Source of the DNA: Candidatus Moraniibacteriota bacterium
GTDB taxonomy: Bacteria > Patescibacteriota > Minisyncoccia > Moranbacterales > JAPLXC01
Length of the DNA stretch: 64,000 nt
Assembly: GCA_026396275.1 (NCBI GenBank)
Contig: JAPLXC010000005.1
Location: 1,615-65,614 of the forward strand
Direction of reading: 5' to 3'
Shown here: piece after piece, positions 1 through 63,044 of the stretch
How positions within the stretch are numbered: the stretch's first letter is position 1
How the letters are laid out: every line of letters begins with the position of its first letter
Made by a program: the position numbers and the translations under genes
The notes under the pieces: model-generated
The model's input: the letters and a program-made list of their open reading frames with translations, nothing else
Told to the model about the DNA's origin: nothing
Database searches by the model: none

Positions 1-501
1 CTTTTTAAAGATTTCTCGTGTTTCGGCATTCATCAAGAGATCAAGATATCTTCTCCGTAAAAGTTCCTCAATGTCTTTGAGTCCGTAATATTCCGTCGGG
101 ATGGGGCGCATATTCTTTGCCAGTATTTTCCAGTCAAAAACATCCAGTGTTTTTTCCTCTTTTTTGGTCTTAAATAATTTTCCCTTGACTTCAATAAAGT
201 CGCCGATTTCAATGTTGTCAATAAATAATTTATATTTATTCCCTCCGACATTTTTTTTGCTTAAAAATATCTGAATTTTTGCTGTTCCGTCCTCAATATG
301 GGCAAAAGCTGACCCGCCCATTGGCCGAAGGGATTTCACTCGGCCGACCAAATAAATTTCGCTGGCGGCGAGCTTGTCGAAACATTCCAGAGCCTCTCCA
401 TTAGTGAAACTCCGCTGTGACTGTTCCGGGTATGGTTCCATTCCGGCTTTTTTTAGAGCTTCGAGTTTTTGCAATTTAGTTTTAATAATATCTTCGCGCA
501 T
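1..501 (-). CDS. lysS: lysyl-tRNA synthetase (class II), N-terminal anticodon-binding part; continues beyond window start
   Basis: Own translation of the frame open from 501 down to 1: MREDIIKTKLQKLEALKKAGMEPYPEQSQRSFTNGEALECF...GRVKSLRPMGGSAFAHIEDGTAKIQIFLSKK...KGKLFKTKKEEKTLDVFDWKILAKNMRPIP...RRRYLDLLMNAETREIFKK. The KGKLFKTK and RYLDL motifs match the LysRS N-terminus. Track ORF 33..251 is a different, overlapping frame. Confidence 0.85.
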   Translation of the reverse strand, partial: MREDIIKTKLQKLEALKKAGMEPYPEQSQRSFTNGEALECFDKLAASEIYLVGRVKSLRPMGGSAFAHIEDGTAKIQIFLSKKNVGGNKYKLFIDNIEIGDFIEVKGKLFKTKKEEKTLDVFDWKILAKNMRPIPTEYYGLKDIEELLRRRYLDLLMNAETREIFKK

Positions 502-35882: not shown

Positions 35883-36134
35883 TTATTCCATTTTACGTTT
35901 AATATCTTTCAGTGTTTCTTCGTCAAATTTTCCTAATTTTTTCAGTTTATCAATTTCCTTGCGGATTCGGACTTTATATAGCGCTTCTTTTCTCTTTTCC
36001 CTTTTGCTTTTTTCTTCAGCCCGAAACCGCGTCCGGCGGGCGCGAACAAGAATGCCGCTCTGCTGAACCCGGCGGGAAAATCGGCGGATTAAACTTTCCG
36101 CTGTCTCTCTTTCCTTTTTTCGCACTTCAATCAT
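35883..36134 (-). CDS. rpsU: 30S ribosomal protein S21-like
   Basis: Basic 83-aa protein, ...ESLIRRFSRRVQQSGILVRARRTRF... Confidence 0.65.
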   Translation of the reverse strand: MIEVRKKERETAESLIRRFSRRVQQSGILVRARRTRFRAEEKSKREKRKEALYKVRIRKEIDKLKKLGKFDEETLKDIKRKME

Positions 36135-40394: not shown

Positions 40395-40934
40395 ATGAAA
40401 ATAATAATCGGTCTGGGTAATCCCGGAAAAAAATATGCGAATACCCGCCATAATGTCGGGTTTATGATAGTGGATAAATTGCGGGAAGCGTGGGACTTCT
40501 CTGCTTTTGAATTAAATAAGAAATTTAATTCTGAAATTTTAGAAGGAAATATAGATGGAAAAAAAATAATGCTCGTCAAACCGCAAACTTTCATGAATTT
40601 ATCCGGCGAAGCAGCAAGAAAGATTTTAGATTTCTATAAATTGACGCCGGCCGACATTATTGTTATTCACGACGATTTAGATATTGATCTTGGAAAATTC
40701 AAAATTTCCGACGATTCCTGCGCAGCAGGACATAACGGTGTGCAGGATATTATTGATAAATTAAGCACACAAAAATTTAAAAGAGTAAGAATTGGAATCG
40801 AGGGCGAAGAAAAAAATAAAAGCCGGACAGTCCCCAGCGAAGATTTCGTGCTTCAAAAATTTGAAGATGTAGAATTAGGAAAAATAGAAAAAGTTTTAGA
40901 AGAAATTCTAGAAGAGCTAAGAAACTCTTTATAA
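40395..40934 (+). CDS. pth: peptidyl-tRNA hydrolase
   Basis: MKIIIGLGNPGKKYANTRHNVGF. Confidence 0.9.
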   Translation: MKIIIGLGNPGKKYANTRHNVGFMIVDKLREAWDFSAFELNKKFNSEILEGNIDGKKIMLVKPQTFMNLSGEAARKILDFYKLTPADIIVIHDDLDIDLGKFKISDDSCAAGHNGVQDIIDKLSTQKFKRVRIGIEGEEKNKSRTVPSEDFVLQKFEDVELGKIEKVLEEILEELRNSL

Positions 40935-40971
40935 TAATCTAGTCACTTTATAATAACCAAAATAAAAGTCA

Positions 40972-41000
40972 TATTACACTATCTGTCGGCCGACATAAGG
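40972..41000. promoter_or_regulatory. 28-bp palindromic operator-like site ACAC-N5-GTCGGCCGAC-N5-GTGT (copy 1)
   Basis: Imperfect palindrome. Two related copies sit upstream of the wHTH gene. Confidence 0.45.
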
Positions 41001-41052
41001 TGTCAAAAGATATTAAATATGCAAATCCATAACTTCCGAATTTATGTTCTGT

Positions 41053-41634
41053 TTAGATAATATTTTTATAAACTTTTTCTACAAGCAAATAATTGACATA
41101 ATTTCCTATTTTTCTTCTTTTTATTTCTTTTATCAAGTCCTCTGTTAAAGAATGCTTGCTTATAAAAACGCTCTCCTGTAATTTTCTGTAGTTTAGAAGA
41201 TATAATTCTTGCCTTAACCAGTTGCGTATTTTTCTTTTATCTTCAGGAATATCAAAAATGACTACTCTGAACTTATTGTCCCATTTTTTATCTAGGGTCT
41301 TTTTTCGATTTAAAACATATTTGGCCAGTATTTTCCCCATTTTTGTTAACACATACTTGTTCCCCCTTTTTTCCACGAAGCCCTGTTTTTGTAATCTTCG
41401 AATGCTCTGTCTTATTGTATTCTCTTTAAAACTGGTCTTTTTTGAAGAGGGTCCTGGCCAATCAAATGATGAGGCGGGAAGATCCGCATAAATTGATGGC
41501 GATAAGAAAGCATTAATAGTTAATTCTCCCATTTGGATTAAGGCAACAAATACCCAGGCCGAAGCATTGAGGGAATTTCTCACAACATTCCTGGTTATAG
41601 CTCTTACCAGTTTCAAGTTTTTCTTCTTTGTCAT
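41053..41634 (-). CDS. winged-helix DNA-binding protein fused to a Cas2-like (VapD/Cas2 fold) C-terminal domain; putative regulator
   Basis: N-terminal wHTH-like (...IRRLQKQGFVEKRGNKYVLTKMG...). C-terminal FRVVIFDIPEDKRKIRNWLRQELYLLNYRKLQESVF...GNYVNYLLVE follows the Cas2 pattern (YDV...RRR...YGxRVQxSVFE...R.YLL). Confidence 0.5.
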   Translation of the reverse strand: MTKKKNLKLVRAITRNVVRNSLNASAWVFVALIQMGELTINAFLSPSIYADLPASSFDWPGPSSKKTSFKENTIRQSIRRLQKQGFVEKRGNKYVLTKMGKILAKYVLNRKKTLDKKWDNKFRVVIFDIPEDKRKIRNWLRQELYLLNYRKLQESVFISKHSLTEDLIKEIKRRKIGNYVNYLLVEKVYKNII

Positions 41635-41679
41635 ATAACCATCTTTTAAAATTAATTCTATATTCCCGCTAGCTATATT

Positions 41680-41708
41680 ACACTATCTCACGGCCGGAGT
41701 AAAGTGTC
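41680..41708. promoter_or_regulatory. 28-bp palindromic operator-like site (copy 2), overlaps the putative promoter of 41053..41634
   Basis: ACACTATCTCACGGCCGGAGTAAAGTGT. On the minus strand a TAATAT -10-like hexamer follows directly. Confidence 0.45.
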
Positions 41709-41754
41709 ATATGACACACTATTTTAGTATTGCTTGTTAAATTAATATTAATTA

Positions 41755-41783
41755 TGTTACATAATCTGGCGGCCGGCGTCAAG
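41755..41783. promoter_or_regulatory. 28-bp palindromic operator-like site (copy 3)
   Basis: ACATAATCTGGCGGCCGGCGTCAAGTGT. Confidence 0.4.
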
Positions 41784-41831
41784 TGTAGTATAATTTATAC
41801 TCTATTATTTCTGAACGCTATTTTGGAAAAT

Positions 41832-42127
41832 AAAAAAGGCAGGTCTTGGTTTCCTAGATCTGCCTTTAAAGATTACTTTCTTTTGCCTTCCACAATTCCA
41901 CCCGCAGTGGCATCCTCACCTGAAAATTCAGGATCAGATACGCTTAACTACTTGCGGACATTAAGGAGGATCGCCCGCTTTGGACTGCGAGCAGAACCAT
42001 GGAAAGCAAACGACGAAGTCGTCCTGAACCCACCTTTGGCGGGTGAAGGATCTCGCAATAATACCGCGAATGGCGTTATTTATTAGATTCATCGACTTCG
42101 TTTGGAATGACAGATTGTTAGGAACTA
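41832..42127 (-). ncRNA. candidate ~300-nt structured transcript of unknown class (own promoter and terminator)
   Basis: Minus-strand promoter TTGACA-17-TATACT at 42134..42162 and an intrinsic terminator hairpin plus T-run at 41832..41866. About 48% GC. No ORF of 60 aa or more. tmRNA, RNase P and SRP hallmarks not found. Confidence 0.35.
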
Positions 42128-42133
42128 ACAATA

Positions 42134-42162
42134 CAGTATAGCAAATTACCGATCATTTGTCA
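42134..42162 (-). promoter_or_regulatory. consensus sigma70 promoter TTGACA-17nt-TATACT (minus strand)
   Basis: Read directly from the sequence. Divergent from dprA. Confidence 0.5.
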
Positions 42163-42193
42163 ACCCTCAAATTTGTGCTAAGATAAAGGCATT

Positions 42194-43297
42194 ATGGAGA
42201 ACAAAAATGACCTAAAACATTTAAACGCTTTGAATAAAATCCCAGGCGTCGGTTCCCAGAAAATGAAAATGCTCCTGAAATTTTTTAAAAGTTCCGAAAA
42301 TATCTGGAAAGCGGATTTGAAAAATCTCAAGGAAAGCAAAATTGGCGAGGCATTGGCTCAAAAAATTATCACGGAAAGAGAAAAAATAAATCCCAGCCTG
42401 GAATGGGAAAAATTAGAAAAAGAAAATATCAGAATAACAACCTTCACTGATGATAATTATCCCAAGCTTCTTAAAGAAATTATCAGCCCGCCGTATATAT
42501 TATATGTAAAGTCCGCCGATATGAATTTTAATTGGAATTCACAGCCGATGGTTGCCATAGTGGGTTCGAGAAAATTCACCCAGTATGGAAAACAGGTGGC
42601 GGAAAATTTCGCCAGAGAGCTGGCGAGAGCCGGAATTTACATTGTGAGCGGAATGGCTTATGGCATTGATTCATTCGCCCACAGGGGAGCGCTGGAAGGC
42701 GGAGGAAAGACCGTTGCCGTGCTGGGTAGCAGTTTAGAAGACAAAAATATCGGCCCGCGGTCCAATTATGAATTATCCCGGGAAATTATGGAAAACGGCG
42801 CGCTAGTTTCTGATTTTCCGACCGGCATTGTCTCTCTTCCCGGCAATTTTCCGGCGCGCAATCGAATTATGGCAGGACTGTCTCTTGGGACAATTGTAAT
42901 TGAAGCGGCGCTTGACAGCGGGAGTTTAATTACGGCCAATTTAGCGCTTGAAGCCAACCGCGAGGTCTTCGCCGTTCCCGGCTCTATCTTTTCTCCCCAG
43001 TCGGAAGGAACGAATAAATTGATTAAAAGCGGCGCCAAATTAGCCGCCAGCGTCACCGATATTCTAGAAGAATTAAACATTGAAAAGAAAGCCAGCGAGG
43101 AAAAAATTAAAAACATAATTCCGGCCACTCCCGAAGAAGAAAAAATTATCAAAAACTTGACGCATGAACCGACTCATATTGACACAATCACCAAACTTAC
43201 TAAACTGGAAGCAAGTGTCGTCTCTGGGACGCTCGCAGTGATGGAAATGAAAGGAATGATAAGGAATATCGGGGGGCAGAATTACATTGTTATATAA
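42194..43297 (+). CDS. dprA: DNA processing protein DprA (Smf)
   Basis: Rossmann-like DprA core (VAIVGSRKFTQYG...VSGMAYGIDS) and a C-terminal wH domain. Confidence 0.85.
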   Translation: MENKNDLKHLNALNKIPGVGSQKMKMLLKFFKSSENIWKADLKNLKESKIGEALAQKIITEREKINPSLEWEKLEKENIRITTFTDDNYPKLLKEIISPPYILYVKSADMNFNWNSQPMVAIVGSRKFTQYGKQVAENFARELARAGIYIVSGMAYGIDSFAHRGALEGGGKTVAVLGSSLEDKNIGPRSNYELSREIMENGALVSDFPTGIVSLPGNFPARNRIMAGLSLGTIVIEAALDSGSLITANLALEANREVFAVPGSIFSPQSEGTNKLIKSGAKLAASVTDILEELNIEKKASEEKIKNIIPATPEEEKIIKNLTHEPTHIDTITKLTKLEASVVSGTLAVMEMKGMIRNIGGQNYIVI

Positions 43298-43372
43298 CAT
43301 ATAACATGAAACATATAACAAATTTTAAAAAATGATTTGTTAGATTGTTACATGTTACGTGTTTCATGTTTC

Positions 43373-45601
43373 ATGAAACTGATTATCGTCGAATCTCCCA
43401 CTAAAGCCAGAACTATTTCCAAATTTTTGGAAAAAATTTATACTGTAAAATCCTCTTATGGCCATGTTCGCGATCTTCCCAAAAGCGAGATGGGAATTGA
43501 CATTGAAAATGATTTTAATCCCCGCTATATTATTCCTACTAAAGCCCGGACCAAAGTTTCAGAGCTTAAAGAACTTTCTAAAAAATCGGATGAGGTGATT
43601 CTGGCCACTGACGAAGACCGCGAAGGAGAAGCAATCGCATGGCACTTGGTTGAGGCACTCGGCCTAAATGCCAGCCGAGATACAAACGTTAAACGTATTG
43701 CATTTCACGAGATTACTAAGAATGCCATATTAAAGGCCTTAGAAAGTCCAAGGAATATTGACATGGATTTGGTCGATGCCCAGCAGGCGCGAAGGATTTT
43801 GGATCGCTTAGTCGGCTATGAACTTTCGCCGTTTTTGTGGAAAAAAGTGAAAAGAGGATTATCAGCCGGACGCGTGCAATCAGTCGCGCTAAGAATCATC
43901 GTGGAAAGAGAAAGGGAAATTGAAAAATTTGAAAAAGAAAATTATTGGGCGATAACCGCTGTACTTTCTAGGGATAAAAATAATTTTGAAGCCGGCCTCG
44001 CAAAAATCGGAGAAAAAAACGTTGAAGAAATCGTCACGCTAAAACTTTTCGCCGGTGACTACAAAACCAAAAAAACTGTCATCGACAGCGAGGCAAGGGC
44101 CAGAGAAATTATTGCCGATTTAGAAAAAGCAAATTACAAAGTAAAAAATATCACCGAAAAGGAAACTTCGCGCTATCCTTCCGCGCCTTTTACCACTTCT
44201 ACTTTGCAGCAGGCGGCCAATGCCAATTTGGGATTTTCCGCCAAGTTCACGATGAGCGTGGCGCAAAAACTTTACGAGCAAGGGCATATTACTTATATGA
44301 GAACCGATAGTGTGAATCTTTCTCTCGAATTAATGCTCGCGGCCAAAAAAATTATTACAAAACTTTTTGGAAAAAACTATGCTCTTCCCAATCCGAGATT
44401 TTATAAAACCAAATCCAAGGGCGCCCAGGAAGCCCATGAAGCCATCCGGCCGACTTATCCCGGCGAGACCCCGGAGGATTTAAAAAACAAGCTAGATCCG
44501 GCCGAATATAAATTGTATAACTTGATTTGGAAAAAAATGATTGCCTGCCAGATGCAGCCGGCAATTTTCGATTCAGTGAAAGCGGAAATTGAAGCCAGTT
44601 ATAAAGGCAATTATCTTTTACGAGCCAATGGTTCAACGCTTAAATTTGACGGGTTTCTGAAGGCATATAACAGCAAAGCACCAGGCGAAAACATTCTGCC
44701 GAAAATGAAAATTGGAGATAAATTAAATTTAATAAAAATTAATTTCGAGGAGAAAGCCACCACCCCTCCGCCGCGATATTCCGAAGCGACATTAATTAAA
44801 GTCCTGGAAGAAAACGGAATCGGCCGGCCGTCCACCTACGCGCCGATTATTTCTACCATCATTGAACGCAAGTATGTTGACAAGAACGAAGAGAAGCGTC
44901 TTTGCCCTCTGGAAATCGGGAAAGTGGTCAATGATCTTCTGGTAGAACATTTTCCCGAAATCGTGGATATTAAATTTACGGCAAACATTGAGGAATACTT
45001 TGATGAAATCGCGGAGGGAAAAAATGAGTGGGTTCCGGTCATTCGCAAATTTTATACGCCTTTTCATAAACACCTGGAGGCGAAAACCAAAGAAGTGAAA
45101 AGAGAAAATGTTCTAGAAAAACTTGATCGTCCTTGCCCTGATTGCGGCGGCGATCTTATTGTAAAATTCGGCCGTTTCGGAAAGTTCATAGCCTGCGCTA
45201 ATTTTCCAAATTGCAAATACACCGAAAAAACAGCCGAGGAAAAAAAGGTGGACGAAGAAAACTCTGGCGTTGTCTGCGACTTGTGCGGCGCCCCGATGAC
45301 AGTCAAGCGCGGAAGATATGGGACTTTTCTAGGATGCTCAAAATATCCTGAATGCAAGGGCATCAAGAAAATTGAAAACAAGATCGGCATGAAGTGCCCG
45401 AAATGCGAAAAGGGAGAAATAGTTGAGCGAAAATCCAAGCGGGGAAAAACCTTTTACGGCTGCAACCGCTGGCCGGAGTGCGATTTCGCGCTTTGGAATA
45501 AACCAACTGGCGAAACTTGCCCGCAATGCGGATCGCTTCTTGGCTATTCTTTCAAAAATAAAATAAAGTGTTCCAGAAAAGAGTGCGATTTTGAAAAGTA
45601 A
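43373..45601 (+). CDS. topA: DNA topoisomerase I with C-terminal zinc ribbons
   Basis: TOPRIM (MKLIIVESPTKARTI, DEDREGE), an active-site Tyr region and four C4 ribbons. Start set at the internal Met. Confidence 0.9.
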   Translation: MKLIIVESPTKARTISKFLEKIYTVKSSYGHVRDLPKSEMGIDIENDFNPRYIIPTKARTKVSELKELSKKSDEVILATDEDREGEAIAWHLVEALGLNASRDTNVKRIAFHEITKNAILKALESPRNIDMDLVDAQQARRILDRLVGYELSPFLWKKVKRGLSAGRVQSVALRIIVEREREIEKFEKENYWAITAVLSRDKNNFEAGLAKIGEKNVEEIVTLKLFAGDYKTKKTVIDSEARAREIIADLEKANYKVKNITEKETSRYPSAPFTTSTLQQAANANLGFSAKFTMSVAQKLYEQGHITYMRTDSVNLSLELMLAAKKIITKLFGKNYALPNPRFYKTKSKGAQEAHEAIRPTYPGETPEDLKNKLDPAEYKLYNLIWKKMIACQMQPAIFDSVKAEIEASYKGNYLLRANGSTLKFDGFLKAYNSKAPGENILPKMKIGDKLNLIKINFEEKATTPPPRYSEATLIKVLEENGIGRPSTYAPIISTIIERKYVDKNEEKRLCPLEIGKVVNDLLVEHFPEIVDIKFTANIEEYFDEIAEGKNEWVPVIRKFYTPFHKHLEAKTKEVKRENVLEKLDRPCPDCGGDLIVKFGRFGKFIACANFPNCKYTEKTAEEKKVDEENSGVVCDLCGAPMTVKRGRYGTFLGCSKYPECKGIKKIENKIGMKCPKCEKGEIVERKSKRGKTFYGCNRWPECDFALWNKPTGETCPQCGSLLGYSFKNKIKCSRKECDFEK

Positions 45602-56571: not shown

Positions 56572-56786
56572 GACTAAACTCACAATCTTGGCGACGGCCT
56601 ACTCTCCCCCCACACCAATTTCAACTACAGACCGCAATAATATTTCGCGTGCAAGTGAAGCGACTTCGCTTTCACAACTAAAATACCATAGCGACGTACC
56701 AAAAATTGGTGTGGGGGTACCATCGGGGCTGAAGTGCTTAACGGCCGAGTTCGGAATGGGATCGGGTGTACCCACTTCGCAAAAAT
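56572..56786 (-). rRNA. 5S rRNA with ~87-nt insertion in the helix IV terminal loop
   Basis: Aligned by eye to E. coli 5S. A 13-bp helix I (CAAUCUUGGUGAU / GUCGCCAAGAUUG), loop C CCGAACUC, ...CCGAUGGUA, then extended helix IV CCCCCACACCAA...UUGGUGUGGGGG enclosing ~87 nt, then GAGAGUAGG. Confidence 0.7.
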
Positions 56787-56982
56787 CACCAAGATTGTAA
56801 GTTCAGATCAAAATTTGAACTTCAAATTTATTTTAAGTAACTGCTAACTGCTAACTTGAAAAACGAGAAAGGTTTAATAGTTTATTAGTACTTCTTGGCT
56901 GAATCCCTCTCGGGACTTACACCTGAAGCCTATCAACCTCGTCTTCTTCGAGGAAACCATACCGCGCACAGCGCGGAAGTTC

Positions 56983-57113
56983 AAATTTCAAAGCTCAAAT
57001 TTTCCCGCCAAAGCGAGATCCCGCCGTGGCGGTGGCAAATCAATTTCAAATGGCTAAATTTCAAAAAAATTTTGTCATTTGGATTTTGGGCTTGATTTGT
57101 CATTTGGATTTTT
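56983..57113 (-). repeat. AT-rich TIR element (copy C) at the helix-98-equivalent variable site of 23S
   Basis: Its reverse complement aligns with copies A and B. Flanked by duplicated CGUGCGCAGCACG-like hairpins. Confidence 0.5.
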
Positions 57114-57162
57114 GATTTTGACATTCCGTGCTGCGCACGACAGTTGCCTAATCTTGGGGTGA

Positions 57163-57193
<31 letters not shown>

Positions 57194-57273
57194 TCGTCCG
57201 AACATAGCTACTCGGCGTTGCTCCTGGCGGAACAGCCGATACACCAGAGGTTCGTTCTTCTCGGTCCTCTCGT

Positions 57274-58042
57274 CACATATTCCCTTATTTCTAAGAGTGT
57301 AGACTATATCTTCATCCCCGATGGACATCGAGGAGCCGACGTGTTATAGCAACACATTTCCATATATTTTCCGTTGCTATCCTATCCCGCCTTGGCGGGA
57401 TAAAGTCGTTACGGGGTCAATCCTAAAATTTTTAGCAATTTTCTTTTGGTTCTTTTTTTCTTAGTAACATAATTTTCTTTCTGAATTTTCATCACGCAAT
57501 TAATAAGTTTAATGTAATCCTTCTTTTCAAGGTTCTTTTTACTAAGAATTTTTATAGCTTTTAATATTTCTTGGCACTGGATCTTTTTGAATTTAATAAA
57601 TGGCTTTAGTTTTTCGAGAATACTTTTTGCCTTATTATAGCCATTAATTCGTAGTTCGGTTATGCTATCATTTCTTCTGGAAATATAACCAATGCCGATT
57701 TTTTTCCTAATCCAGTACAAGGGTTTTTCGTGGCGCGAATCCTGATAAAAGCAAATAGTAACCATGAAGCGGCTTTTTCCATTGTCGCTTCGTTTTTTTA
57801 TTTGCAACATTAAGCTTCCATCGCCATCAAGAAAACCTGCAATATAAGCTAAATTAATTTTAGAACGACTTCCCACGGTATTATCTTAATTATTTATCCG
57901 GTCCTCAAGTAACTTTATCATATCACAAAATTCGCTGGACCGCAAATCATTTTGTGATCCCACAAACCGGAAAATAAATGAAGACTTCACCGTTATTAGT
58001 CGGATTTTCAATTCCGCTTGCGCGGAAAAGTAGCAATCTTCT
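57274..58042 (-). mobile_element. group-I-like intron in 23S rRNA at the sarcin-ricin loop (between E. coli U2656/A2657 equivalents), encodes a LAGLIDADG endonuclease
   Basis: Exon junction reconstructs CUCUAGU|ACGAGAGGACC. 5' exon ends in U and the intron ends in G. Shares blocks (AUCCGACUAAUAACGGUGAAG, AUACCGUGGGAAGUC) with the intron at 59118..59358. Confidence 0.7.
57409..57876 (-). CDS. LAGLIDADG-family homing endonuclease (intron-encoded)
   Basis: LAYIAGFLDGDGS motif near the N-terminus. 155 aa, single-motif type, inside intron A. Confidence 0.8.
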   Translation of the reverse strand: MGSRSKINLAYIAGFLDGDGSLMLQIKKRSDNGKSRFMVTICFYQDSRHEKPLYWIRKKIGIGYISRRNDSITELRINGYNKAKSILEKLKPFIKFKKIQCQEILKAIKILSKKNLEKKDYIKLINCVMKIQKENYVTKKKRTKRKLLKILGLTP

Positions 58043-58105
58043 TACTAGAGAAGACTCCCCTCAAGCAACAACGCCTACGGCAGATAGAGACCAACCTGTC
58101 TCACG

Positions 58106-58389
58106 CATATTTGTTCACTTATTACTAAGTGTATGGACTATAACTTAATCCTTTTTTATTTTGTACAAAATTAGGATTGCTAACATTTAGTCTCTACGGG
58201 TTTGTAATTATTTACAATTCCCTCGGTATTGTCCAAACATATTTTGGATTTTACCGAAATTAGTTAGCTTCTCTTTTAACATTACTGTTAAAAGCCGCCA
58301 TGAATGATGTCATTAAATATCCTCGGGTTCAAACAGTAAAATCTCCTTTAACTAAAAAGCTAATGAAGCTAATAGCTAAAAGCTGCTTT
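58106..58389 (-). mobile_element. group-I-like intron in 23S rRNA at the I-CreI-type site (E. coli ~2593; AACCGU|CGUGAGACAG)
   Basis: A 284-nt insertion in the invariant GUCGUGAGACAG segment. Intron ends in G. No ORF. Confidence 0.65.
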
Positions 58390-58453
58390 ACGGTTTGAAC
58401 CCAGCTCGCGTACCGCTTTAATTGGCGAACAGCCAAACCCTTGGGAGCTTCTC

Positions 58454-58493
<40 letters not shown>

Positions 58494-58720
58494 TCCTCCG
58501 TCGATATGGACTCTTGGGAGGAATAAGCCTGTTATCCCCGGGGTAACTTTTATCTGATGATCTTCCACCCTCCTATGAGGGATGGTCGGTTCACTAAATT
58601 CCACTTTCGTGACTGATTGACTTATGGGTCTTTCAGTAAAGCTGGCTTGTGCTTTTGCGCTACCGGCCCGATTTCCATCCGGACCTAGCCAACCTTAGTA
58701 AACGCCTCCGTTGCATTTTG

Positions 58721-58751
<31 letters not shown>

Positions 58752-59117
58752 AGGCACTGTTCCCAACCCGGTACCAATAACCAACAACTTACAACTCACA
58801 ACTAAAATAACATTAAAAGAAATGTTATCAGTTGTTTGTTATCAGTTAGTCATTAGTAACGGGTTAGGGTTAGAACTAAAACTTCAGCAGGGTGGTATTC
58901 CACTGTTGCCTCCATCCCGACCAGAATCGGGACTTCATCGGCTCCCACCTAAGCTCGGCAGCTAAAACTCTAATCCAATGCCAAGTTGTAGTAAAGCTCC
59001 ACGGGGTCTTTTCGTCTTGCCGTAGGTCGACGGCATCTTTACCGTCATTGCGATTTCACCGGGTCCTTCGTCGAGACAGTTACCAAGTCGTTACGCCTTT
59101 GATGCGGGTCAGAATTT

Positions 59118-59358
59118 CATTTTTGCTGTTTTGCTTTCGCAAACAATAGACTATATCTTCACCCCGATATTATATCGGGGGCCGACGTGTTACCCACAAT
59201 AATTGTGAGTCCAGATTAAATAAATAATCTGAGTCGTTACGGGGTCACTAGGACTTCCCACGGTATTACCATATCCTTCAAGGACTTAGGCTTCACCGTT
59301 ATTAGTCGGATTGCTCATGCCGCATTGCTGCGGCATTCAGGCAAATGTCTGACACTTT
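59118..59358 (-). mobile_element. group-I-like intron in 23S rRNA near E. coli position 1951 (CCUUGUCAGGU|AAAUUCUGACC)
   Basis: A 241-nt insertion. 5' exon ends in U and the intron ends in G. Homologous to intron A. No ORF. Confidence 0.65.
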
Positions 59359-59778
59359 ACCTGACAAGGAATTTCGCTACCTTAGGACGATTATAGTTAT
59401 CGCCGACGTTCACTGGCGCTTCGGGAACAAGCTTTCACCCGCTCCGTTAACGTTCCAGCACTGGTCAGGCGTCAGCCCCTATACTTCCCCTTGCGGGTTT
59501 GCAGAGACCTGTGTTTTTGGTAAACAGTCGCCTGGTAAACTTTCGCTGCGTCCCGCCCTTTTGGACTAAAATTTTAAGGCTTCATGAATTTTATTTTCAC
59601 AAGCTTAAAATTCATTCCCAAAAGGGCGGGAAAGACATTTCGCGAACTTACGTCTAGTTTTTTTGCCGAGTTCCTTAACGAAGGTTCTCCCGTTCACCTT
59701 GGGCTACTCGCCCAGTCCACCTGTGTCGGTTTTCGGTACGGACGCTGTTAGATTCGCTCGTATCGCGCTTCGCGCGAT

Positions 59779-59925
59779 ACATCGCTAAATTCAAAAATCA
59801 AAGTGCAAAATGCAAAATTAAGGAACTCGCTACACTCGTAATTTTTTATATTTTAAATATAAAATAATCAGTCGCGAAACGACACCAAAATTTTGATTTT
59901 TGATTTTTGCATTTTGAATTTGAGT
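59779..59925. repeat. AT-rich family-2 inverted-repeat element inside a 23S variable region (domain III)
   Basis: Arms CAAAAATCAAAGTGCAAAATGCAAAA / TTTTGATTTTTGATTTTTGCATTTTG, like 16187..16382. Confidence 0.45.
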
Positions 59926-61085
59926 GAGTATCACACGAAAGGTGATACGAACGACATAGAGGTTTTTCCTGGTAGCGCGCTCGTTCAGCTTCCCCTGATA
60001 AAATCAGAGTTCGCCGCGTTTCTTGAAGTAATGCCCTGCGGATTTGCCTGCAGAGCCCTCTTAAAACGCGGACGTTAATCCAATAAATCGCCTGAATTAC
60101 TGCACTACGTCACCTCATTTATAAACTAATAGCGGTGCCGGAATATTAACCGGCTGTCCATCGACTACGCCTTTCGGCCTCGCCTTAGGACCGACTAACC
60201 CTGGGATGATCGTCATTGCCCAGGAAACCTTGGACTTGCGGTGTGCCGGGTTTTCACCGGCATTGTGGTTACTCATGCCAACATTCTCACTTCCATAAAC
60301 TCCAGTCCGACTCACATCGAACCTTTGCTGCTTATGGAACGCTCTCCTACCGCCAATGCAAAGCATTGGCCCATATCTTCGGTACCATGTTTAGCCCCGT
60401 TACATTTTCGGCGCGAATCTTCTGGTCTAGTGAGCTGTTACGCACTCTTTAAAGGGTGGCTGCCTCTAAGCCAACCTCCTAGATGTATAAGAAAATTCAC
60501 TTCCTTTCCCACTTAACATGGATTTAGGGACCTTAGATGATGATTTGGGCTGTTTCCCTTTTGAGATCCGACCTTAGCGCCGGATTTCTGACTGCCTCGG
60601 TAAATATCGCAAGAATTCGGAGTTTGGTTGAGAACCCTGCGGCGAACCGCGAGTCCTCATTCAGTAGCTCTACCTCTTGGATACAATGTCGAGACGCTAG
60701 CCCTCAAGCTATTTCGGAGAGAACCAGCTATTGCCAAGCTCGGTTGGAATTTCTCCTCTACACACAAGTCATCTCCCAGTTTTGCACGGCTGGTGAGTGC
60801 GGGCCTCCCCCCGATTTTACTCGGGGTTCACCCTGCTCATGTGTAGCTCGCCTGGCTTCGGGTCTAGTCCGCGCGACACGCCTTGTACCACAATGGTACA
60901 AGGCAAAGCCCATTTAAGGCTCGCTTTCACTGTGCATATCCTCCAAAGGAGTTTATACAAGTCACGCAAAACTAACTCGTTGGCTCGTTCTACAAAAAGC
61001 ACGCAGTCACCCCGACTTGCGTCGGGGCTCCTACTCTTCGTTTGCATATGGTTTCAGGTTCTATTTCATCTCCCTCACCGGGATA

Positions 61086-61122
<37 letters not shown>

Positions 61123-62180
61123 ATCTCGCACAATATTTAGCCTTGGAAGATTAGTGCTCCCAGATTCAGACGGGATTTCTCCGGTCCCGCCCTACTTGAG
61201 AATAATAACCGTAAAGATGTTTTCTTTTTATGTACAGGGCTATTACCTTCTATGGCCGCTCTTTCCAGAGACGTTCTATTAAAAAAACATTTTATAACTC
61301 TACCTCCGCAGAATGTAACACGTTGAGAAAAATCTCAAGATGTTACAAACTCGGAGCGTTACCATCCCGCAACGCCGCAATCACCAAAGTAATTACGGTT
61401 TTGGCTTTTCCCCTTTCGCTCGCCACTACTTGGGGAATCACTATTGTTTTCTTTTCCTCCTGGTACTAAGATGTTTCAATTCCCAGGGTGCGCCATACGC
61501 ACCTATGAATTCAGCGCGTATTAATCCCGCCGAGGCGGGATTGGATTGCTCCATTCGGATATCCCCGGATCAAAGCTTGCTTGGCAGCTCCCCGAGGCTT
61601 ATCGCAGCCTGCTACGTCCTTCATCGCTTGTACGAGTCAAGGCATCCACCATATGCATGAGTAAACCTTTCTCTTTGTTAGCAGTTAGCAATTACTTAAC
61701 TTTAGCTAACTTTTTCTTAATTTACGACCTACTTAAAACTTACCACTTTTCACTGACTCATCTTTCCGCAAAACGCGAACAAGCCAATGACAGTTGGTTA
61801 AGACCTATTCAGTTTTCAAGGAGCGATTACTGCGGAAATAAATTAGAACAATATTATTCAAACTTATTTCAACACTAATCATCAACCTGTCACCCACTCA
61901 CCAGTTTCGAAAGCATTCTGGTGATTTCCTAAAACTGGATACACAGTCGCGCCTTCGGCTTGATCTGAAAAAATATTAAATATTGATAAAAACTGGTGAG
62001 GGATTTGTTTCTCTTATCAAAATCAAAGATTTTGAAGAGAAACAAAAAACCGCTTGTTCGGCGGGCTGTCTCCTCAAGAACAACTTAAAAATAAAGAATT
62101 TACCCGCTTCTTTTTCCAATATGCTTTTTTCGAATTGTCTTTACTATATGTTTGAAAAAATAATTAGTTAGTCAGTTTTC

Positions 62181-62223
62181 GACAACGTGTTGTCATATTA
62201 ACAATTCCCGAAAAGGATGTCAA
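62181..62223 (-). promoter_or_regulatory. rRNA promoter TTGACA-17nt-TAATAT with adjacent 14-bp palindrome GACAACGTGTTGTC
   Basis: On the minus strand: -35 at 62218..62223, -10 at 62195..62200, palindrome 62181..62194 at the predicted start site, about 510 nt upstream of mature 23S. Confidence 0.45.
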
Positions 62224-62351: not shown

Positions 62352-63044
62352 CTACTGGTTTCTTTCGGAAATTTCCTCCCGCAGTTTTTTAAGTATCGCC
62401 GCCGCTTCGTCTTTGCCACCCAGACCGAAAGCCAGTCCTACTGCCAGAGACAGCGCCGCTATCAAGCCAATGAATATGGTGTTAACCAAGGAGACCGCGA
62501 TTCCTAATTGAACGAGAGCCGCCAGCAACCCGAAAACCACAATCGCCCATTTGGAAATTGTCGCAAGCAACGTCGCGCTCATTATTCCCGCCGCCCGGGT
62601 GCTATGACGGACCACGTTATAGACGAAATTACCGAGCAAAAAGGCGATGGCCAAAATGATCGTGGCTACCACGAGATTGGGAATATAGAGAATGACGTTA
62701 TTGAGAAAGCCAGTTACTTGGCTAAGGCCAAGAATGTCAGTCGCCGCCATCAAAAATACCAAAATCAAAAACCATTTCACCAGCTCGCCGAAAAACCGGG
62801 AGACGCTTATCCGAAGACCTGTTCCCTTGAACTTTTCCCCTATCCCCATCTTATCCAGCGCTTGATCAATGCGAAGAACCATGATAATTTTTTCAGCCGC
62901 TTTTCCCAAGGCAACCGCTGCAATAAGTCCGAAAAGGAAAACAAGCAGTGCCCCGATAAGAGCAGGAAGAAAACTGATAAACCTCGCCCACAATTCAAGC
63001 AGGGACATTGTTATTGCTTCCCCCCATGTTTGTACCGGATTCAT
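62352..63044 (-). CDS. polytopic membrane protein (small mechanosensitive-channel-like / TM-helix repeat protein)
   Basis: About 5 TM helices and a charged C-terminus. Weak resemblance to the MscS N-terminal region only. Confidence 0.4.
   Translation of the reverse strand: MNPVQTWGEAITMSLLELWARFISFLPALIGALLVFLFGLIAAVALGKAAEKIIMVLRIDQALDKMGIGEKFKGTGLRISVSRFFGELVKWFLILVFLMAATDILGLSQVTGFLNNVILYIPNLVVATIILAIAFLLGNFVYNVVRHSTRAAGIMSATLLATISKWAIVVFGLLAALVQLGIAVSLVNTIFIGLIAALSLAVGLAFGLGGKDEAAAILKKLREEISERNQ

Follow-up and report, generated by a model that had tools for sequence, protein, structure and literature searches.

The P6 element of OLE RNA contains a perfect CCUCCU mimic of the ribosomal anti-Shine-Dalgarno (ASD) sequence, which is bound by the ribosomal protein bS21, with matching phenotypes (PMC12054373). 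The alpha-r14 small RNAs (sRNAs; NfeR1) carry an ultraconserved anti-Shine-Dalgarno (anti-SD) sequence, CCUCCUCCC, in the loops of hairpins with variable stems, and act by antisense pairing to mRNAs (PMC10746234). The ribosomes of Bacteroidia do not perceive Shine-Dalgarno (SD) sequences, their ASD being held by bS21, bS18 and bS6; SD sequences are rare in these bacteria, where it is rpsU that has a strong one (PMC9976891, PMC7797042). The ASD motif of 16S rRNA is detected in only 48% of Parcubacteria (PMC9297842). Here we describe the ASD-loop RNA gene, which is located on the minus strand of a 64,000-nucleotide stretch of DNA from a Candidatus Moraniibacteriota bacterium (GenBank assembly GCA_026396275.1, contig JAPLXC010000005.1, positions 1,615 to 65,614). 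This whole stretch is termed the window. A promoter and an intrinsic terminator flank ~300 nt of GC-rich DNA, which contains no conserved open reading frame (ORF). The gene is an independent, strand-specific structured RNA gene, the core of which is conserved in at least three lineages of Parcubacteria at one pth/dprA site.

Judged by the relatives of its DprA, the window belongs to Candidatus Moranbacteria, a group within the Parcubacteria. Twenty distinct copies of the RNA are found, one per locus: the copy of the window and 19 homologues, from Moranbacteria, Buchananbacteria and Falkowbacteria. When the window RNA is used as an nhmmer query, only its 3' two-thirds is matched, upstream of dprA in the loci L001, L003 and L004, and therefore the conserved core is delimited as given in Table 1. 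The copies at L013, L014/L015, L016, L034 and L038 come from contigs encoding relatives of DprA, and those at L019, L021, L022, L024, L025, L026, L028, L029 and L030 from a degenerate-pattern scan of metagenomes, which also gave two false hits and three duplicates. A covariance model (CM) of 132 positions, termed R1, finds a copy in Buchananbacteria (L006; 44 bits, E ~1e-7) and, with the filters off, another in Falkowbacteria (L007; 25.8 bits). Both of these copies are full-length and have their own promoter, and the latter also has a terminator. The RNA directly follows a convergent pth gene at both loci, as it does in Moranbacteria, and at L007 it is also directly divergent from dprA. Wherever neighbouring genes are visible, the RNA is convergent with pth and/or divergent from dprA. 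A promoter of the form TTGAC(A/T)-N16-18-TAnnnT is located upstream of 19 of the 20 copies, with L021 as the exception, and most of the Moranbacteria copies have a core of exactly 131 nt.

The RNA is not detected by nhmmer or by the CM with filters off near dprA at six Moranbacteria loci that differ in synteny, with the order mraZ..tRNA..dprA (L002, L005, L031-L033 and L035), nor by the same searches at the L010 locus of Magasanikbacteria, which has nothing but a hairpin between pth and dprA. Weak CM matches in L008 and L010 are judged to be AT-rich hairpins and are rejected as homologues. The pattern scan of viral contigs gives no copies. L012, L036 and L037 are without usable upstream sequence. 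At positions 1..170 of L012, a promoter of the RNA type with the upstream flank of L013/L034 is followed at once by the C-terminal end of an IS30-like transposase gene (read by eye, on the other strand) and by the contig end. In this close relative, an insertion sequence appears to have disrupted or displaced the RNA gene.

All copies fold to the same three-way junction, in which P1 is 24-29 base pairs (bp) long, P2 is 5-8 bp long, P3 has a base of 6 bp, which an internal loop separates from an apical stem of 4-6 bp, and J3/1 is 2 nt long. The minimum free energy (MFE) structure of the window core is identical to its centroid structure, with a free energy of -62.1 kcal/mol (z -7.63) for the minus strand versus -40.1 kcal/mol (z -3.27) for the plus strand. 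The homologues are scored by the CM at 80-131 bits in the forward direction versus 17-37 bits in reverse. This signal is strand-specific, and the numerous U-G pairs would turn into C-A mismatches if the opposite strand were read. When 16 sequences are aligned with MAFFT, 90.5% pairing is found in P1 and P3, versus 38-50% for slid partners, and double changes are seen at 12 pairs. In a CM alignment of 17 sequences, L006 included, double compensatory changes are present at 26 of the 41 pairs, 90.5% of the cells are paired versus 37-48% in slid controls, covariation is scored at 0.458 versus 0.09-0.14 for slid partners, and 0 of 500 shuffles reach any of the five observed measures; against these figures it has to be said that the CM alignment is fitted to the model, that its numbers lean toward structure, and that sequence kinship inflates the shuffle statistics.

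The three helices vary in sequence while they keep their pairing. Double changes are seen at 14 of the 24 modelled pairs of P1, with 91% of the cells paired, and the sequence at the base of this helix is conserved. P1 of the distant copies at L006 and L007 is 24-29 bp long and quite different in sequence; that of L007 shares almost no sequence with that of the window, yet pairs at 23 of 24 positions. All six pairs of the P2 stem show double changes, and at least seven different stem sequences are found. The compensatory variants of P3 include GUAUCC/GGAUAC (L016), GUGUCU/GGACGC (L038) and UAAG/CUUA (L006 and L007). The loops of P3 are AU-rich and differ by clade (AUUU, AAUUUU, UAAU, UUUUUU), and its internal loop is not conserved. 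The pattern of J1/2 would fit a T-loop-like U...A pentad. A pseudoknot between the P2 loop (AUCCUC) and GAGGAU is rejected, because the covarying base of P3 makes use of GGAUGC and because clade B, the second subgroup of Moranbacteria, does not have the complementarity. Interpretations of P3 as a hammerhead, a twister or a K-turn are likewise rejected, because their motifs are not conserved between the clades. With promoter, terminator, synteny and covariation in its favour, the RNA very probably represents a genuine family of structured noncoding RNAs (ncRNAs).

The 3' tail of 16S rRNA reads AUCACCUCCUUA, and its consensus is GAUCACCUCCUUA. The loop of P2 is the only invariant loop of the RNA and displays the ASD motif CCUCCU. 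It reads UCCUCCUU in 16 of the 17 tabulated copies from Moranbacteria and ACCUCCUU in the remaining one, L001. The loop of L038, read directly, is UCCUCCUU. The sequence is CCUCCUCCUU in clade B, and CCCUCCU in L006 and L007. The ASD motif of the loop is predicted to be unpaired with a probability of 0.95-1.0. In clade A, the subgroup to which the window belongs, the loop AUCCUCCUUA, with the flanks AUC...UUA, resembles the 16S tail beyond the SD-pairing core. The flanks are not conserved in clade B, L006 and L007, where CCUCCU alone is kept. The AGUAG of J2/3 resembles AGUAGG of OLE RNA; its pairing with the loop would require melting of P2 and has no support from covariation. The positions of all parts of the window RNA are summarized in Table 1.

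Table 1. Parts of the ASD-loop RNA gene and the adjoining dprA promoter in the window
Feature	Position	Strand	Description
Sigma-70-type promoter	42135..42163	minus	-35 TTGACA 42163..42158; 17-nt spacer ending TGC (extended -10); -10 TATACT 42140..42135
Promoter-like site for dprA, divergent	42157..42184	plus	TTGTCA-16-TAAGAT with TG; ends 10 nt before the dprA ATG at 42194
Lineage-specific structured 5' extension (~118 nt)	42011..42128	minus	Start-proximal hairpin, then multi-hairpin domain closed by CGAAGUCG/CGACUUCG; outside the family core
Conserved core, three-way junction	41880..42010	minus	131 nt; R1 118.8 bits on this strand vs 21.1 on the other
P1, 5' strand	41985..42010	minus	Pairs with 41882..41907; 26-bp closing helix with many U-G wobbles
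J1/2	41979..41984	minus	UCCAAA; family pattern U-Y-N-R-A-A, 6-7 nt across copies
P2 hairpin	41954..41978	minus	GCGGGC/GUCCGC; 13-nt loop GAUCCUCCUUAAU 41972..41960; anti-SD CCUCCUU 41969..41963
J2/3	41942..41953	minus	AAGUAGUUAAGC; conserved AGUA(G) and RAGC; ~12 nt across copies
P3 long hairpin	41910..41941	minus	Base GUAUCU/GGAUGC; internal loop GAU/UGA; apical stem CCUGA/UCAGG
P1, 3' strand	41882..41907	minus	Preceded by the 2-nt J3/1 CA at 41909..41908
Intrinsic terminator	41827..41867	minus	Hairpin 41867..41835 including flanking A-U pairs; G+C core 41864..41838; U-run 41837..41827

The promoter of the RNA matches the consensus at 11 of 12 positions, has an extended -10 TG, and is the top promoter-like site across 40500..43500. 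Transcription would start near 42129..42126. Sites of the form TTGACA-N16-18-TAnnnT occur nine times in the 64-kb window, versus 1.27 expected, and one of them precedes 23S rRNA. The RNA promoter is thus near consensus and of the same type as the 23S rRNA promoter. The terminator hairpin is located ~265 nt 3' of the -10 box. It reads GGCAG-A-UCU-A-GG AAA CC-A-AGA-C-CUGCC (GGCAGAUCUAGG-AAA-CCAAGACCUGCC), with two mismatches, is followed by UUUUUUAUUUU, and folds with -14.9 kcal/mol (z -3.1). A consensus scan misses this terminator, because the two mismatches in the stem make it read as long-looped. The GC content is 0.41-0.50 over 41800..42200 versus 0.26-0.39 in the flanks, and the 301-nt unit folds with an MFE of -111.5 kcal/mol (z -7.45). 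A first-pass annotation, made from the sequence of the window, had proposed a near-perfect promoter on the minus strand, a strong terminator 3' of it, and a GC-rich block of ~300 nt between them. All three elements are borne out, the coordinates of the promoter having been off by one base. The ~300-nt unit is indeed bracketed by these signals; only its 131-nt core is conserved, and its 5' third is lineage-specific.

The transcript unit of the window therefore consists of the lineage-specific 5' domain, the 131-nt core and a short tail with the terminator. The 5' domain folds with -34.1 kcal/mol (z -3.4). When it is used as an nhmmer query, no homologue is found at the other loci, and its likeness to the extensions of L029 and L038 is limited to short strings. 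The distance from the -10 box to the core is 124 nt in the window and 5-27 nt in most homologues, which have no extension; it is 60-87 nt in L014, L029 and L038, where unrelated or variable 5' extensions of ~50-80 nt are present. In L021, a GC-rich, apparently structured stretch (GGGCCGAGGAGGAAAGCUGAAUC; 230..400), without an Rfam match, is located ~150 nt upstream of the core, and could represent either a long 5' extension or a further RNA element. Optional large hairpins are found at one position of J2/3 in L001 (3723..3648), in L019 and, as a different hairpin of 103 nt, in L004. Those of L001 and L019 have a common stem, ACCCCC(U/A)CACCAAUU...AAUUGGUGUGGGGGU, and unrelated apical parts. 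These inserts could represent an expansion segment or a small mobile hairpin.

The -35 boxes of the RNA promoter and the dprA promoter overlap on opposite strands, as a palindromic TTGACAA/TTGTCAA. Such a back-to-back pair of promoters, with TTGTCAA-N16-18-TAnnnT on the dprA strand, is present at 10 of the 20 loci, among them the window, L001, L013, L014, L026, L028, L030, L034 and L038. The position of the dprA promoter in the window implies that the dprA mRNA is probably leaderless or has a very short leader. The two promoters may exclude each other, and we infer that they may be functionally linked. In clade A (L012, L013, L034 and L038), CCCUUAAUUUAGCC is conserved just upstream of the RNA -35 box and includes the -10 box of the divergent dprA promoter. 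In clade B (L004, L024 and L025), AAAUAUUCYCCAAAACUUCUARYGGKG is conserved just upstream of the -35 box, and may be a regulator site or an UP element.

Two other units of the window border on these observations. The gene located 3' of the RNA terminator (41053..41830, minus strand) codes for a protein of 193 aa in which a winged-helix domain is combined with a PaaX_M/Cas2-like domain. Ahead of this gene is a pair of AT-rich palindromes together with several promoter-like sites (41815..41682), which suggests an autoregulated operator region. The 23S-5S unit (56686..62223, minus strand) has its own TTGACA-17-TAATAT promoter at 62223..62195, which immediately follows the terminator of a mechanosensitive-channel-like gene (62352..63044). 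Upstream of this unit, the window contains no 16S gene, and the rRNA operon appears to be split. Rfam group I introns are detected at 59368..59128, inside the 23S gene, and at 58316..58115, just 3' of where the LSU match ends; ~1.3 kb of unassigned sequence then precedes 5S (56793..56686).

In five copies, which represent three phyla, the core is directly followed by a termination signal: a terminator in the window, L021, L034 and L007, and a U-run behind P1 in L006. Several of the terminated copies face a convergent pth gene. A co-directional ORF that has a strong SD (AAGGAGG, GAGGAGG, GGGAGG or similar) starts 37-66 nt after the core at 10 of 19 loci, with no clear terminator between them. 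These ORFs are unrelated to one another, and encode a CDP-alcohol phosphatidyltransferase, a 731-aa membrane protein and hypothetical proteins of 55-145 aa. At the other nine loci, no co-directional SD-led gene follows the core. In the window, the next gene is located 245 nt past the terminator, with promoter-like sites of its own. The RNA is what stays in place from locus to locus, and the genes downstream of it vary; we therefore read it as an independent RNA gene, the strong promoter of which is sometimes also used by inserted genes.

The ORFs that follow the core at about half of the loci would also be expected if the RNA were a cis-acting 5' leader, in which the anti-SD loop sequesters the SD of the following gene in response to a ligand, temperature or a protein. 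Strong SDs are otherwise rare, and a terminator is usually present where no gene follows, as this reading would have it. However, the downstream genes are not only unrelated but come and go while the RNA keeps its position at pth/dprA, and the stand-alone, terminated form is found in all three phyla. Small hypothetical ORFs have strong SDs elsewhere too, so that the enrichment is a property of this class of genes. The anti-SD loop is ~130-150 nt away from the SDs in question, no expression platform with alternative pairing is evident, and in the window the next gene is separated from the RNA by a terminator and has promoter-like sites of its own. A cis-acting leader is therefore quite unlikely. 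Nor does the RNA show the marks of riboswitches and cis-regulatory leaders, namely a steady position ahead of genes with related functions and an aptamer overlapped by an expression platform: the downstream genes are unrelated or absent, independent terminators are present at five loci of three phyla, and the RNA is what synteny keeps.

Rfam 15 (4227 models, including those for 6S, SRP, RNase P, tmRNA, raiA, OLE, Y RNA-like, ar14, riboswitches and ribozymes) gives gathering-score matches in the window only to 23S rRNA, 5S rRNA, two tRNAs and two group I introns. Over 41650..42300, nothing is found at E<=10 but chance hairpin matches to the terminator. No gathering-score match is found at the position of the RNA in 18 homologue loci, and no consistent sub-threshold match in five whole loci at E<=10. 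ARAGORN, in a search for a tmRNA with its tRNA-like acceptor and T-arm and its tag frame, detects just two tRNAs and no tmRNA in the window, in agreement with Rfam. 6S RNA, in which a large central bubble separates a closing stem from a terminal stem of at least 25 bp, is rejected, because the RNA is a three-way junction with a J3/1 of 2 nt and a P3 of ~11-14 bp, and has no match to RF00013 at E<=10. SRP RNA, with its domain IV of symmetric and asymmetric loops, conserved A/G residues and a GNRA tetraloop as cap, is rejected as well, because the loops of P3 are AU-rich and clade-variable, its internal loop is not conserved, and no SRP model is matched. Two features of described RNAs are found: as in alpha-r14-like sRNAs with an anti-SD seed, a stand-alone gene with its own promoter and terminator encodes an invariant anti-SD in an unpaired loop on a covarying stem, and, as in P6 of OLE RNA, a conserved element contains an exact CCUCCU copy of the ASD. 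No description of such an ncRNA from the candidate phyla radiation (CPR) was found in the searchable literature.

The window also contains a 56-aa ORF on the RNA strand, with a 43-aa version, and a 118-aa ORF on the opposite strand, as a gene for a small protein would require; the GC-rich hairpins could in principle also be a functionless chance block. However, neither the 56-aa nor the 118-aa ORF is matched by Pfam, and none of the reading frames is conserved: stops occur in every frame of the RNA strand in most homologues, and the opposite strand is open in different frames in the two clades and is interrupted by inserts. The 43-aa ORF begins in the 5' domain that the other homologues do not share. 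The substitutions in the RNA are compensatory, and three candidate phyla have kept the locus, the promoter and the structure. Thus, the ASD-loop RNA is a structured RNA and not a peptide gene, and either of these two explanations is extremely improbable. The first-pass annotation had described a structured small RNA of an uncatalogued class with its own promoter and terminator and without hallmarks of tmRNA, RNase P RNA or SRP RNA, a description which the fold, the covariation, the homologues and the Rfam 15 and ARAGORN searches support; it had named an Rfam family match, or codon wobble in place of compensatory changes, as a refutation, and neither is observed; with regard to its third refuting condition, the absence of a discrete transcript, the sequences show promoters at the homologues and termination signals at five copies, which speak for a transcript as far as sequence can. 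Its statement that the ORFs are short or implausible stands, as those of the minus strand do not exceed 56 aa. Its best candidate, the 43-aa peptide, is the ATG-start version of the 56-aa ORF and is not conserved in the homologues. Its reading is now refined, as the results support the presence of a recognisable functional motif in the core, namely the exposed anti-SD sequence.

The genomes that encode this RNA make little use of SDs. At six Moranbacteria loci (L013, L014, L016, L031, L034 and L035), an SD of four nucleotides is found in 15 of 69 called genes, and one of five nucleotides in 8 of 69. In the window, the SD rate is 25% upstream of starts versus 31% at internal start-like codons, which serve as a control. 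The housekeeping genes hisS, lepB, lytR, pth, dprA, topA, relA, parAB, mur, ftsI and mraZ have no SD. A -10-like box is located right upstream of the ATG in many housekeeping genes, which are likely to give leaderless mRNAs. Strong, well-spaced SDs are found at small hypothetical ORFs (of the AAGGAGG type), at the ORFs 3' of the RNA and at a bS21-like gene. This last gene (35883..36134, minus strand) encodes a highly basic protein of 83 aa, and its SD, UUGGAGGUUUUAGAUG (GGAGGT), is one of the few strong ones in the window. The protein matches 26 PDB entries, all of bS21, over its full length, with E from 1e-3, and falls below the Pfam and NCBIfam cut-offs. The gene is putatively a divergent rpsU, the matches being weak.

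As the best of several readings, we tentatively propose that the ASD-loop RNA is an abundant decoy for the ASD, which pairs with the minority of mRNAs that are SD-led; this proposal is a possibility rather than an expectation. The long P1 helix and the junction would form a stable scaffold that presents the loop. The exposed loop would pair with the GGAGG-type SD tracts of mRNAs, in the manner of the anti-SD loops of alpha-r14 sRNAs (PMC10746234), and hide them from the 30S subunit. The decoy would tune the SD-led minority selectively and spare the bulk of translation, which is SD-less. It could act in trans, and also in cis on read-through transcripts. The decoy would be selective for a minority class because the genomes are SD-poor and the housekeeping genes have no SD.

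Several points weigh against the decoy. The case for it rests entirely on inference from sequence. A 12-nt complement of the loop is not enriched in the window, with 12 matches at two or fewer mismatches versus 8.75 expected. The complementarity of the loop to the SD region of the bS21-like gene ends at GGAGG, and no specific target is found in the window. The strict length of 131 nt, the invariant junction nucleotides and the 24-29-bp helix exceed what a simple seed-presenting sRNA needs, and are more typical of a ribonucleoprotein (RNP) or of an RNA with a tertiary fold. Finally, the resemblance of the clade A loop flanks to the 16S tail goes beyond the needs of SD pairing, and favours the main rival reading, in which the loop mimics the tail for a protein.

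According to this rival reading, the AUCCUCCUUA loop on a rigid junction is a mimic of the 16S 3' tail that binds a protein of the platform which is otherwise in contact with this tail, namely bS21, possibly with bS18 or bS6, and stores, titrates or senses the protein, by which the handling of SDs would be reset. The same length, junction residues and conserved P1 base that exceed the needs of a seed would fit an RNP, and the flanks of the clade A loop match the consensus of the 16S tail beyond the SD-pairing core. OLE RNA provides a precedent, in that its CCUCCU mimic of the ASD is bound by bS21 (PMC12054373). The window shares the Bacteroidia signature, as it is SD-poor and contains a bS21-like gene with a GGAGGT SD. 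However, the ASD mimic of OLE RNA is paired with an SD-like strand, whereas the loop is open here; the loop flanks that speak for the tail are lost in clade B, L006 and L007; and the identity of the bS21-like protein is drawn from weak matches (E 1e-3, below the cut-offs given above). We consider a protein-binding mimic somewhat unlikely.

The low frequency of the ASD motif in 16S rRNA of Parcubacteria, detected in 48% (PMC9297842), raises the question of whether the RNA replaces the ASD instead of competing with it. As a surrogate in trans, it would dock on the platform of the 30S subunit where the 16S ASD is lost or hidden, and serve the few SD-led mRNAs. The persistence of strong, correctly spaced SDs on a subset of genes and the rRNA-type promoter of the RNA agree with this. 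The loss of the ASD is however tied mainly to a subgroup that lacks uL1 (PMC9297842), to which Moranbacteria may not belong. In addition, such a surrogate has no known precedent, small SD-led genes are also found at Moranbacteria loci that lack the RNA near dprA, and the RNA has no similarity to SSU models of Rfam. A surrogate ASD is therefore very unlikely.

According to a broader reading, the RNA would be a dedicated component of translation in SD-poor Parcubacteria, a free-standing copy of the 16S tail that works with bS21 and/or the 30S platform, and gates SD-led mRNAs either by masking their SDs or by supplying the ASD in trans where that of 16S rRNA is lost or sequestered. This reading seems unlikely. 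If true, it ties the RNA to the report that about half of Parcubacteria are without the 16S ASD motif.

The ultra-small CPR bacteria (Patescibacteria) account for a large part of the diversity of bacteria; essentially none of them is in culture, their ribosomes are reduced and unusual, and their regulatory RNAs are hardly known. The ASD-loop RNA turns SD-dependent initiation in SD-poor or ASD-lacking Parcubacteria into a question that can be tested directly. Beside OLE RNA, it is a compact second example of an ncRNA that copies the ribosomal ASD. Even as an ordinary sRNA with a seed loop, it merits an Rfam entry, which would improve the annotation of CPR genomes.

The architecture, the host clade and the SD-poor context of the ASD-loop RNA are new, and its kind, a small RNA with an anti-SD loop or an ASD mimic, is known. 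It resembles alpha-r14 (NfeR1) in that the anti-SD sequence (CCUCCUCCC in alpha-r14, UCCUCCUU here and CCUCCUCCUU in clade B) is located in the unpaired part of a hairpin with a varying stem, and in that it is encoded by a stand-alone gene with a promoter and a terminator of its own; alpha-r14 acts by antisense pairing to SD regions (PMC10746234). The likeness to Gram-positive sRNAs with C/U-rich seed loops is more general. The alpha-r14 RNAs differ in that they are alpha-proteobacterial and consist of three simple hairpins, each with the motif, whereas the ASD-loop RNA presents one anti-SD loop in a length-invariant junction with a helix of 24-29 bp, in SD-poor hosts. OLE RNA is likewise a conserved, structured ncRNA with an exact CCUCCU copy of the ASD (PMC12054373). 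It is however ~600 nt long, occurs in Bacillota, is associated with the membrane together with OapA/B/C and has its ASD mimic paired, whereas the ASD-loop RNA has a core of 131 nt and an open loop; the two show no sequence or structure match in Rfam, and no oap genes are seen near the ASD-loop RNA. The SD-blind system of Bacteroidia is similar in that SDs are absent from most genes and that a bS21 or bS21-like gene has a strong SD, and different in that it has no separate RNA component. The likeness to 6S RNA is conceptual: 6S RNA is a structured housekeeping decoy with a long closing helix, which mimics the nucleic-acid ligand of a core machine, RNA polymerase. 6S RNA is an irregular hairpin of 160-200 nt with a large central bubble, whereas the ASD-loop RNA is a three-way junction, in which a motif of translation is mimicked.

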